Assembly (NCBI GenBank): GCA_964658305.1 | Contig: OZ210884.1 | Span: 1,426,001-1,490,000, forward strand | Reading direction: 5' to 3' | DNA length: 64,000 nucleotides | DNA from: Leptogorgia sarmentosa | Lineage: Eukaryota | Shown here: piece after piece, positions 17,501 to 60,900 of the stretch | Position numbering within the stretch: the first letter of the stretch is position 1 | Layout: each line of letters opens with the position of its first letter | Notes under the pieces: generated by a model | Database searches by the model: none | What the model was told of the DNA's origin: nothing | What the model saw: only the letters and a program-made list of their open reading frames with translations | Position numbers and translations under genes: made by a program

Positions 17501-20500
17501 TAAAAGTATAAAAGCGTCGGTGGAGGGGGTAGGAGGGGGTAAACATGGGGGTTGAAAACATCAGCAAAGTCTCGTGTGTTACAATTGAATTAACATTCAA
17601 TGTCATCTCGACATTATGTGATGTAACCTGCTGCATGTCGGTACGGAACGCTCATAGAATTTCGGAAAATGTCGTGACAGGATTCTGTAAAATCTATTAG
17701 CCTTTCATAATAAGGAAATATATTGACCATGAATGTGGAAGCGTGAATATTATACCTACCGGTAGTGTGGTGCTCAAAAGCAACCCCGCCAGGATAAGCA
17801 TAAGAAATATCATTATTCCAGCCAAAGGCTAACATTCCGAAAATAATTTCAGGTGAAGAATGATAGAATGTAGCAATTTCCGTTCCAGGTGTGCCAACGA
17901 CTGTCCATACATATTTGGTTCCCGTAACTCTCATCCAGTCTAGATTATCCCCTTTCAATCCATTTATGAACAATCCATTGGTGTGGCGTTCTTCGATTGT
18001 AACTATCACTGAGCTATAAAAATTTGAAGTATAACTAGAAACAATGCGATAATATGGCAAATAGTGTTTTACCGAAGGAAGAACAATCATAGAGGCGCGA
18101 CATCCGTTTCTTTCGCCTCTTGTGTACTGTGTAACTTGGCATGGTTTACTGCAATTAACAAATGAAGCCAAAGTTTCATCTAAACTAATTTCAACGTGCA
18201 TCCCCAATGACAAAACTTTGGTCCAGTTTCCACTCTTGATTACCGTATTGTTTTCGTAAGCAAAGACCCGAAAAACATCTCCTCGACTTTTTTGAGCTGA
18301 TCCAATTGTTGTCAAGATATAATGTTGTCCCCATTGGCTAACAGGTGAAAGAAATGAATCAAGTCTTCCAACCAATCCAGAATTTCCAATACGTGCACGG
18401 TCTACGCTAGAGACTACCGAGATTGGTTTTGTTGCGTAAATGACTGTTCCTGATAAGTCCGATGTGCTAGTCAGCTGTATAGATTGCAATCTATCCAAAG
18501 AAACCTGGAGAGGATTTCCATGGTTGTACCAAGTTCCGTCGTACTGGATCGTGGAGACACGATTAGGTTGAATTAAAATCTTGTTTTTGTCATGTGTAGA
18601 TATTATGCCAATTTTCGCTCGTGAGTTACCATCATATGGTTTATATGATGGAACAATGTAAGTAATGCCCAATGCATGGGTGGGAAGGGCTAGGTATGCA
18701 TGACCATAGGATGAACTGTGGTAATTCAAACACATCAAGGAAATCTCCGTTGTCGATGAAACCAGAATACCATTTGTTTGTTTGCTTTGCATTCGCAGAG
18801 ATGACGGCAGAGAATAGTGCAAGGATTCGCCTTTTTTCATATGAAAAGTCACGTTCAAGGGACTTTCTGATGTGCGCGTTAGAATAGACACATTTGCATC
18901 AAGGTGAGCAACTATTGACATTCCAATGTAACCACCACTGCTTGAAAAATACTGTGCGGGAAATCCGAGAATGAATTCTTTCCCACAATTAGTCACCTTA
19001 TCTAAAAAACAAATGTAAATTAAATATTTGTTGTTAATGGCCCTATCAATTTTATTTGAAAATAAGAAACAGAAACATTTTAAGTACTTCAGTTGTAAAT
19101 AAGTGAAATGCATCCACAATAAACGAAATAAATCCATATAATGCATTTCTTGTATTTAAAAATCAAAAGCTACTAGTTGCCATATTGCATTTTCCAGGAA
19201 GTGCAATTAATGAAATTATTGCTCTCTTTTTGATCAATTTGATTGAAGAAAACTAAATGTAGTAATTCCTCTATTTCAGTTGTTTATGTTACCTTGGAAT
19301 GTTGACTTGAATGATGCTATGTAACTTGTTTGTTGTTCTCCTAAAGACAAAGAGACATTGAAAAACTAATTAATGGATAATCAAACGAATAATAAAGTCA
19401 TCAAAGAAACCTTGGTAAATAACTACTTTCGCATTTTGGTGGCAAAAAAACTTTTCATTGTCTTATTTTCCTACTATGTAAGACAACAAATTTCCTGTCA
19501 GAATTTGGAGGTATGTTTCCCCTCTATCATTGTGAAAAACGTGCACATTATTTTGTATTTAATTAGATCAGATTAGTTTATATAACTGAGAAGACAATAT
19601 AATTTATACAGGCTCGCGTATTCCGGCTACTACTTACCGCCAAAATGGTTTTGCAAAGCGAATCCACCAGGGTAAGCGTACGAAGCTCCATCACTCCAGC
19701 CATATACAAAGAGACCAAACTTTACTGCTGAAGACGTATGATAAACAGTGACAGTACTTGGGTCAGAAAAACTTACTACTGTCCACACATATTCCGTTCC
19801 ATTGACCATCTTCCAGTTTACGTCCATTAATTTTATTCCATTCAAATACAAGCCTTTTAGGTGCTGATACTGTATTACTATGGTGATCGAATCGTAGTAT
19901 TCTGAACCATAGGGAAGCACCACACGGTAGTAGGAAAGGAATTGTCTTACTGATGGGAGGATCATCATCGAAGGATCAGCATATTTTCCACCAATTCGCT
20001 CGCCTTTGATGTATTGCACAACTTGACATGGTTTACTACATTTAACAAATGATGCATGACCAAGTTCCAGCTCCGTATATGTCGCCGCCGACAAGAATTT
20101 TGTCCAGTATTCAGTTTCCACAACAGTGTCGTTTTTATAGGCGAAAATTCGAAAAACGTCGGCTTCGTTTTTATCTAATGTTCCTAACGCTATCAAGATG
20201 AAGTAGTGTTCCCAAAGAGAAACTGGTAAAAGAGCAGTTTCAAAAAAGTCGTCCCGAGAATTGACAGAACTTGTTGGTCGAGCTCGTTCTACTCCAGATA
20301 TTACTGTAACAGGTTTTCGCGACTTTACTAATGTCCCAGACAAGTCTGACTTACTTGAAATGTATAATGCTTCAAGTTTTTCTAATGTTACATACAGAGA
20401 TGTTCCTTTTCTGTACGAGAATTCACGTGATTGAATGACAACGTTCTTGTTGGGAATAACTATAATGGCGTTGTTTTCATGCGCTGAGATGACAGCAAAA

Positions 20501-60900: not shown

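Follow-up and report, generated by a model that had tools for sequence, protein, structure and literature searches.

FCGBP's N-terminal domain is widespread in animals and bacteria, and the excerpted sections of two papers describe its function as unclear (PMC4948705, PMC11796319). One further paper, in its excerpted section, treats the domain as the immunoglobulin G (IgG)-binding part without structural detail (PMC13063508), and supplementary figure S5 of PMC4948705 sets out 974 architectures by accession, which may include cnidarian tandem forms. According to the excerpt of PMC11237159, amphibian PRITs carry tandem arrays of the domain, are glue components and have selected sites scattered over the domain; a Bombina peptide L/D-isomerase is a relative of it in that excerpt and in the one from PMC3325411. 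The excerpt of PMC2739507 describes TM1070 (PDB 1nc7), ASRT (2ii7) and the ASRAH superfamily as eight-stranded sandwiches, arranged as tetramers or as four copies per chain, with predicted sugar binding. Here we analysed a 64,000-nucleotide stretch of the octocoral Leptogorgia sarmentosa (contig OZ210884.1, positions 1,426,001 to 1,490,000; hereafter the window), which carries a tandem array of FCGBP N-terminal domains on its minus strand at 17760..60900.

The array comprises ten long exons (E1 to E10; 1,242-1,278 nucleotides, nt), each with AG/GT splice ends and in phase 1 at both boundaries. Each encodes one domain (Pfam PF17517, IgGFc_binding), and all six exons scanned matched the whole profile with scores of 143-171 bits against a curated cut-off of 25.6. 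The best candidate in each of the nine introns was a phase-1 micro-exon of 48-54 nt, encoding a linker of 16-18 residues that resembles the linkers of Dendronephthya gene models, and three epidermal growth factor (EGF)-like exons were found 3' of E10. Joined together, the 22 exons gave one stop-free frame of 4,519 residues with 62 N-glycosylation sequons and no membrane segment in its last 160 residues.

Compared with FCGBP, the locus has ten tandem domains rather than one N-terminal copy, has no VWD-C8-TIL units in the window, and has its last domain spliced to three EGF exons and a stop. It resembles the PRITs in being a tandem IgGFcBD array made by exon duplication, without VWD units in the part of the gene that the window covers. 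It differs from them in its short micro-exon linkers instead of long disordered PG repeats (as in PRIT-Dg), in its EGF tail, and in change that is focused in five loops where the PRIT sites, as excerpted, are scattered. Judged by the named close relatives among the matches listed, Dendronephthya and Paramuricea, it also belongs to a separate octocoral lineage. The gene models compared from these two (Dendronephthya LOC114532010, LOC114532035 and LOC114532167; Paramuricea CAB3981121), all uncharacterised predictions, share the domain clades and the linker motif, and LOC114532010 has the EGF tail as well; the lineages differ in which domain types are amplified. No paper on the family in octocorals, on loop-focused variation of the domain or on a link to TM1070/ASRAH appeared among the literature matches listed, in a search that mostly did not cover subscription journals.

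With modest confidence, we favour the reading that the array encodes a probably secreted chain of at least ten binding domains, with a separate ligand for each domain type, and that the types are renewed by duplication, loop divergence and recombination. The pattern itself is real, the domain is a known one and so is its kind of architecture; what would be new is the location proposed for the functional site of the domain.

The first-pass annotation of this DNA had described variation concentrated in five Tyr/Ser/Arg-rich loops, and all of the loop strings it quoted are present in the ten exons. To avoid circularity, loop statistics were taken from 94 homologues outside the window (of 120 listed; one, P0019, is nearly identical to E2), with seven window rows dropped from the alignment. 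Mean entropy in the five loops reached 2.52 bits, against 1.68 for other loops and 1.43 for strands (p 8e-8, treating columns as independent), so that the concentration exceeded both chance and ordinary loop variability, although three other loops rank by entropy among the five named. The composition was confirmed in part. Tyr (12.5% versus 3.1% in other loops) and Arg (8.0% versus 3.7%) were enriched and Lys (2.2% versus 6.7%) and Glu (1.4% versus 4.2%) depleted, whereas Ser was not enriched (15.0% versus 13.0%; p 0.23 in the window exons). Among distant relatives (5.4% versus 2.7%, 236 rows) the Tyr excess was less marked than in the close clade (12.8% versus 3.3%, 114 rows), where it was strongest. 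Indels also clustered as claimed in the outside homologues, the five loops holding 46% of the indel weight in 10% of the columns, but not uniformly within the window, where loop 5 has no indel and, by reading, four of the eight indel sites fall outside the named loops. The NSY/NFY change in loop 5, which had been cited as a sign of focus, is real. It is one of six amino-acid differences among E2-E4, the other five being in the scaffold; since the loops make up about 10% of columns, this share is expected, and the change was discounted as evidence.

Clade comparisons bear on whether these loops are simply permissive. Clades were defined from scaffold columns only, with window sequences excluded, and pairs were compared at 65-88% strand identity. 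Among E1-like domains the identity of the five loops was close to that of other loops (0.59 versus 0.64; 31 of 36 pairs), whereas it was far lower in the middle clade (0.36 versus 0.72; 19 of 21 pairs) and in E10-like domains (0.42 versus 0.66; 162 of 276 pairs). Similarly, E1 and P0002 have 80% of loop positions in common at 77% strand identity, compared with 36% for E2 and E5 at 79%. The loops that one lineage keeps are thus the ones that others turn over, a pattern more in keeping with a functional site than with a tolerant surface and suggesting that the five loops are not simply tolerant positions.

Next, the placement of the loops was considered on a predicted structure. The AlphaFold2 model of E1 (mean predicted local distance difference test score 92.7; predicted template-modelling score 0.92) was almost all beta, and we interpret it, by secondary structure, as a chain of four modules, each some 100 residues long and apparently an eight-stranded beta-sandwich; profile likeness among modules was weak for modules 1-3, though above reversed controls, and nil for module 4. 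Loops 1 and 3 connect strand 1 to strand 2 in modules 1 and 2, and loops 2, 4 and 5 tip the last hairpin of modules 1, 2 and 4. TM1070 was the best structural match both of module 1 (Z 7.4, root mean square deviation 4.1, 104 of 116 residues) and of module 2 in a separate model of modules 2-3 (Z 8.9, 4.3, 103 of 116), and it was not among the matches listed for modules 3 and 4. Other best module matches were GOLD, CUB and cupin-like sandwiches, with Fn3 domains reaching only Z 4-4.6 with module 4. By sequence no PDB relative of the domain was found (best E 0.16), and Foldseek gave only partial matches to multi-sandwich proteins, with a TM-score of at most 0.16 among those listed. The likeness to ASRAH proteins lies in the eight-stranded sandwich; identity is 11-13%, the Trp at the start of strand 1 and the Asn at the end of strand 2 were not seen here when read by eye, and the ASRAH pocket, as excerpted, is on the sheet face and dimer interface and not at the loop ring.

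For covariation we kept the 366 domain rows, of 395, that had under 30% gaps. Position 217, which lies at the base of loop 4, coupled to 102 (loop 2), 310 (module 3 hairpin) and 408 (loop 5), with ranks of 5-55 among about 83,000-87,000 pairs in all four overlapping subsets, compared with 2,950-61,028 after shuffling; these positions were noticed in the output and not named beforehand. The couplings suggest that the bases of loops 2, 4 and 5 meet. At the predicted axis the family consensus is Asn95, Asp102, Asp217, His218, Asp310 and Ser408 (complete in 97 of 366 rows). When the two ends of the domain were assigned by hand from strand alternation, the loop-bearing end had an indel weight of 8.30 over 151 residues (2.94 over 102 without the five loops) and the opposite end 0.19 over 71 residues. 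From the fold match, covariation and strand parity together, we infer that the five loops lie on one face of a pseudo-fourfold ring, as the first-pass annotation had supposed of a single binding surface; the support is indirect.

Each domain of the proposed binder would consist of four beta-sandwich modules packed round a pseudo-fourfold axis, as if a TM1070 tetramer had been joined into a single polypeptide. The last hairpins of the modules, three of them tipped by loops 2, 4 and 5 and the fourth less variable, would come together at the axis over the conserved polar cluster, with loops 1 and 3 as the outer rim of the pocket. The linker and domain cassette of two phase-1 exons would be the unit duplicated in the germ line and the loops would diverge on a conserved scaffold, both steps being observed at this locus, while unequal crossing-over or gene conversion would recombine loops of neighbours, as observed for E8. 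Across species the loops of the E1 type are retained, so that it probably keeps one ligand, and the E2-E8 types may explore others. Judging from the Tyr/Arg chemistry and the fold relatives, the ligands would most likely be glycans or surface polymers of microbes, mucus or matrix. A Dendronephthya gene model, P0122 (LOC114532167), places three IgGFc_binding domains on the outer side and ends in Fn3, a membrane segment read by eye and a tyrosine kinase. It is possibly a receptor form of the family; this kinase architecture, though a prediction only, fits a ligand-binding role.

The recombination step is seen in E8. In synonymous scaffold differences, E5, E6 and E8 differ by 14-16% in the first 140 codons and by 0.5-2% beyond. 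E8 tracks E6 across the upstream intron and loop 1; between about nucleotides 130 and 380, a stretch that includes loops 2 and 3, it tracks E5 (permutation p 0.0002). Thus E8 is a recombinant with loop 1 of one copy and loops 2-3 of another. E6 and E7 lie in 3.65-kb tandem units (29074-36368) that differ at 11 columns and have identical exons, representing either a very recent duplication or an assembly expansion. Several introns hold short high-copy repeats, a number of them with inverted ends (21146-21625, 24538-25008, 32108-32698, 35756-36346 and 58600-59505), which are likely small transposons and could seed unequal crossing-over.

That the domains belong to a single polypeptide was supported by assembled contigs. 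Those of X4-X6, from one study, were taken as spliced on the ground that their pieces end at predicted splice sites, no listed run being recorded as RNA; X1 contigs, unlike these, continue through introns. A 4,015-nt contig (X5, X6) joins E9, 47 letters, E10, 240 letters and the third EGF exon, and in length these gaps correspond to linker 9 (48 nt) and to EGF exons 1 and 2 (117 + 123 = 240 nt). The E9/E10/EGF and E1/linker 1 joins show that neighbouring domains are spliced together, and a loose end 5' of E1 in X5 reads as a further linker-like exon absent from the window. The single polypeptide is therefore supported for the covered joins (linker-E9-linker-E10-EGF-EGF-EGF and E1-linker 1) and by the unbroken 22-exon frame; all ten domains are likely to lie on one secreted chain, the contigs covering the E9-E10-EGF and E1-linker joins and including no full-length ten-domain mRNA. 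Mutually exclusive exon choice as the sole mode was rejected, as E9 and E10 share one contig. A loose end at 60573 that might have indicated an E1/E2 chimera is best explained as the E2 part of an E1-linker-E2 contig, and the chimera was likewise rejected.

Whether the loops are diversifying under selection was analysed using our own codon-model script on nine exons (E7, identical to E6, was omitted), with the alignment split at codon 140 because of the recombination. These estimates of dN/dS (omega, the ratio of non-synonymous to synonymous rates) rest on the window's own exons, a metagenome scan having given five loci at 25-28% identity, which are too distant. Over the nine exons other loops had an omega of 0.21 and strands 0.15; over E2-E8 the values were 0.27 and 0.21. 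At the amino-acid level the five loops change 2.5 to 4 times faster than other loops. In the first 140 codons M8 was borderline (p 0.04 against M8a, 0.008 against M7), and all four sites with a posterior above 0.5 fell in loops 1-2.

Several observations weigh against the binder reading. The omega of the five loops was 0.52 over the nine exons, significantly below 1 (p 3e-6), and 1.10 over E2-E8, not different from 1 (p 0.63). M2a was not significantly better than M1a in the first 140 codons (p 0.10), and site models gave no signal in the 3' two-thirds of the alignment or in E2-E8 alone (p 0.20-0.40). Alleles scarcely differ: other samples showed no differences in E9 and one in E10. Within 90%-identity clusters, which by construction exclude strongly diverged members, loops varied at 49 of 340 columns and other loops at 132 of 1,367 (p 0.014; nine of ten clusters, one mixed cluster being dropped), an excess that vanishes without one more cluster (p 0.34). 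Several of the ten domains are near-identical (E2-4, E6-7), leaving about seven loop sets, and the indel-bearing loop columns are the least reliably aligned. On the structural side, a common arrangement can give Z scores of 7-9, single covariation scores at about rank 30 are level with those obtained after shuffling, three of the six pairs among positions 102, 217, 310 and 408 rank low, and the one-face placement comes by inference, for loops 1 and 3 from strand parity only. Finally, the N terminus of the gene, and hence any signal peptide for secretion, lies outside the window. On these omega values and site models, positive selection on the loops is not established. The first-pass annotation had proposed dN/dS across domains and alleles as a check of its diversifying surface, and this check gave it no clear support, the pooled omega not being significantly above 1, the site-model signal being borderline and the loops being nearly invariant among alleles; what stands of the claim is that these loops evolve faster than others and are shuffled in E8.

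The strongest competitor, which we judge doubtful yet a serious contender, is a structural mucus or adhesive protein like the amphibian PRITs, in which repeats give length and avidity and the loops of duplicates lose constraint and drift. Drift predicts a loop omega of about 1, as in E2-E8; near-identical copies are amplified both here and in Dendronephthya; the sequons are numerous; and PRITs themselves, in the source excerpted, are glue components (PMC11237159). Arrays in other animals with 10-17 domains carry Lys/Glu/Pro-type loops. The unnamed proteins P0158, P0159, P0161 and P0162, with 17, 11, 6 and 10 domain matches respectively, have loops that are not Tyr/Arg-rich, and P0161 ends in a ZP domain. 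Drift does not account, however, for the same loops staying as conserved as other loops among E1-like domains, or for the Tyr/Arg enrichment and Lys/Glu depletion that persist despite turnover. Moreover, the change is local here whereas PRIT selected sites are, as excerpted, scattered, and no disordered repeats separate the domains.

Antibody complementarity-determining regions (CDRs) and germline-diversified invertebrate recognition families offer another comparison, as the first-pass annotation had called the loops CDR-like. The likeness to antibody CDRs consists of Tyr-rich, Lys/Glu-poor, length-variable loops on a fixed beta scaffold, with loop combinations reshuffled by recombination. The differences are that diversity here lies between a few paralogous germline domains of one chain with low allelic loop variation, that the closest fold match is not an immunoglobulin domain, and that no somatic mechanism was seen in the contigs. 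In chemistry and placement the analogy stands; in rate and in allelic diversity it does not. We consider it rather unlikely that octocorals have made of the FCGBP N-terminal domain an antibody-like germline repertoire, in which a secreted multi-specific net and related kinase receptors would recognise different microbial surfaces via the pseudo-fourfold loop ring, with renewal through duplicated cassettes and shuffled loops.

It seems improbable to us that the array consists of enzymes related to the Bombina isomerase, in which the active site would be central and the loops would choose the substrates. The family relationship (PMC3325411, PMC11237159, both as excerpted) and the polar cluster at the predicted axis would suit it, and E5-E8 have a His one position earlier than His218. 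His218 itself, found in 183 of 366 family rows, has given way to other residues in each of the ten window exons, which also lack the loop-4 cysteine pair present in 151 of 366 PF17517 rows, and the excerpted parts of the papers cited do not name the isomerase's catalytic residues.

We give equally little credence to a self/non-self or adhesion code of the kind exemplified by Dscam, protocadherins and Hydractinia Alr proteins, with domains binding each other or a polymorphic partner: the symmetric phase-1 cassettes would permit exon skipping, the 5' parts of E5-E8 diverge while the 3' parts are homogenised, and a second E1 haplotype exists, but a membrane anchor was rejected for the C-terminal exons covered, consecutive domains are spliced together rather than used as alternatives, and among same-type members from other samples the loops hardly vary (at 1 of 40 and 0 of 40 loop columns). 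That haplotype, found in X1 (59632-61891), has at least 13 differences at half depth and a haplotype-specific upstream intron; the 13 listed differences give seven amino-acid changes, and 11 of the 13 fall in codons 35-164 and none in a named loop.

The probably secreted binder remains the reading we prefer. The domain spans bacteria to human gut mucus with no agreed function, and PDB and Foldseek searches found no solved relative; the locus points to a specific predicted site, the five loops and six floor residues round the predicted axis, and its domains offer natural variants for swapping loops. Should the domains bind different microbial ligands, this would be a diversified recognition family in octocorals, not found described in the literature searched; if not, it would be a coral counterpart of the amphibian PRITs.

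Table 1. Features of the array and its 3' end in the window (positions counted from the first letter of the window)
Feature	Position	Strand	Evidence and remarks
E1 domain exon	59632..60900	-	PF17517 E 3.6e-50; splice sites; contigs reach both exon ends; phase 1-1; conserved-loop lineage
Loop 1 of E1	60827..60856	-	residues 15-24, between strands 1 and 2, module 1
Loop 2 of E1	60596..60616	-	residues 95-101, last hairpin, module 1
Loop 3 of E1	60512..60529	-	residues 124-129, between strands 1 and 2, module 2
Loop 4 of E1	60248..60286	-	residues 205-217, last hairpin, module 2
Loop 5 of E1	59678..59689	-	residues 404-407, last hairpin, module 4
Linker micro-exon 1	54390..54440	-	51 nt, phase 1-1; exact match to loose end 3' of E1 (X4, X6)
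E2 domain exon	52542..53807	-	splice sites, Pfam, alignment
Linker micro-exon 2	50956..51006	-	51 nt, predicted
E3 domain exon	49108..50373	-	99% to E2
Linker micro-exon 3	45376..45426	-	51 nt, predicted
E4 domain exon	43528..44793	-	99% to E2
Linker micro-exon 4	40122..40175	-	54 nt, predicted; like Dendronephthya model linkers
E5 domain exon	37436..38707	-	splice sites, Pfam, alignment
Linker micro-exon 5	36640..36693	-	54 nt, predicted
E6 domain exon	33788..35065	-	splice sites, Pfam, alignment
Linker micro-exon 6	32992..33045	-	54 nt, predicted
E7 domain exon	30140..31417	-	sequence identical to E6
Linker micro-exon 7	29345..29398	-	54 nt, predicted
E8 domain exon	22572..23843	-	mosaic: E6-like loop 1, E5-like loops 2 and 3
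Linker micro-exon 8	21782..21835	-	54 nt; probably the 31 unplaced letters beyond E9 in spliced contigs
E9 domain exon	19638..20900	-	Pfam; contig piece ends at exon ends
Linker micro-exon 9	19293..19340	-	48 nt; 47 unplaced letters between E9 and E10 in spliced contigs
E10 domain exon	17760..19001	-	Pfam; contig piece ends at exon ends
EGF-like exon 1	16070..16186	-	117 nt; matches EGF after last domain of Dendronephthya P0123
EGF exon 2, calcium-binding type (read by eye)	15700..15822	-	123 nt
EGF-like exon 3, stop (about 14613-14615) and 3' untranslated sequence	13734..14791	-	contigs, frame
Likely last 3' exon, end approximate	13207..13341	-	134 unplaced letters at contig end; acceptor at 13341

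EGF exon 3 has a possible phase-1 donor near 14672, which the contigs read through, and its stop lies about 880 nt ahead of the further 3' intron; either form is without a membrane anchor. At 18702, all four runs compared had another base, giving the family Asp and not His at the base of loop 2 in E10, so the base in the window is either a rare allele or an assembly error. X1 contig depth was 317-387 over E5-E8-type sequence (21683-23504), compared with about 100-140 over single-copy parts, which fits the window copy count poorly; the difference could be a hint of copy-number variation, but contig depth is no copy number. Upstream of E1, the intron contains a C-terminal piece of a hAT transposase (63193-64000, minus strand; PF05699, E 1.5e-12).

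A separate multi-exon gene on the plus strand (7497-10846) faces the 3' end of the array. Designed armadillo repeats were its only matches among PDB sequences. Its first piece encodes amphipathic and hydrophobic helices with a weak HlyE match (E 0.032), and the gene presumably resembles the cnidarian pore-forming toxins of the box-jellyfish type.

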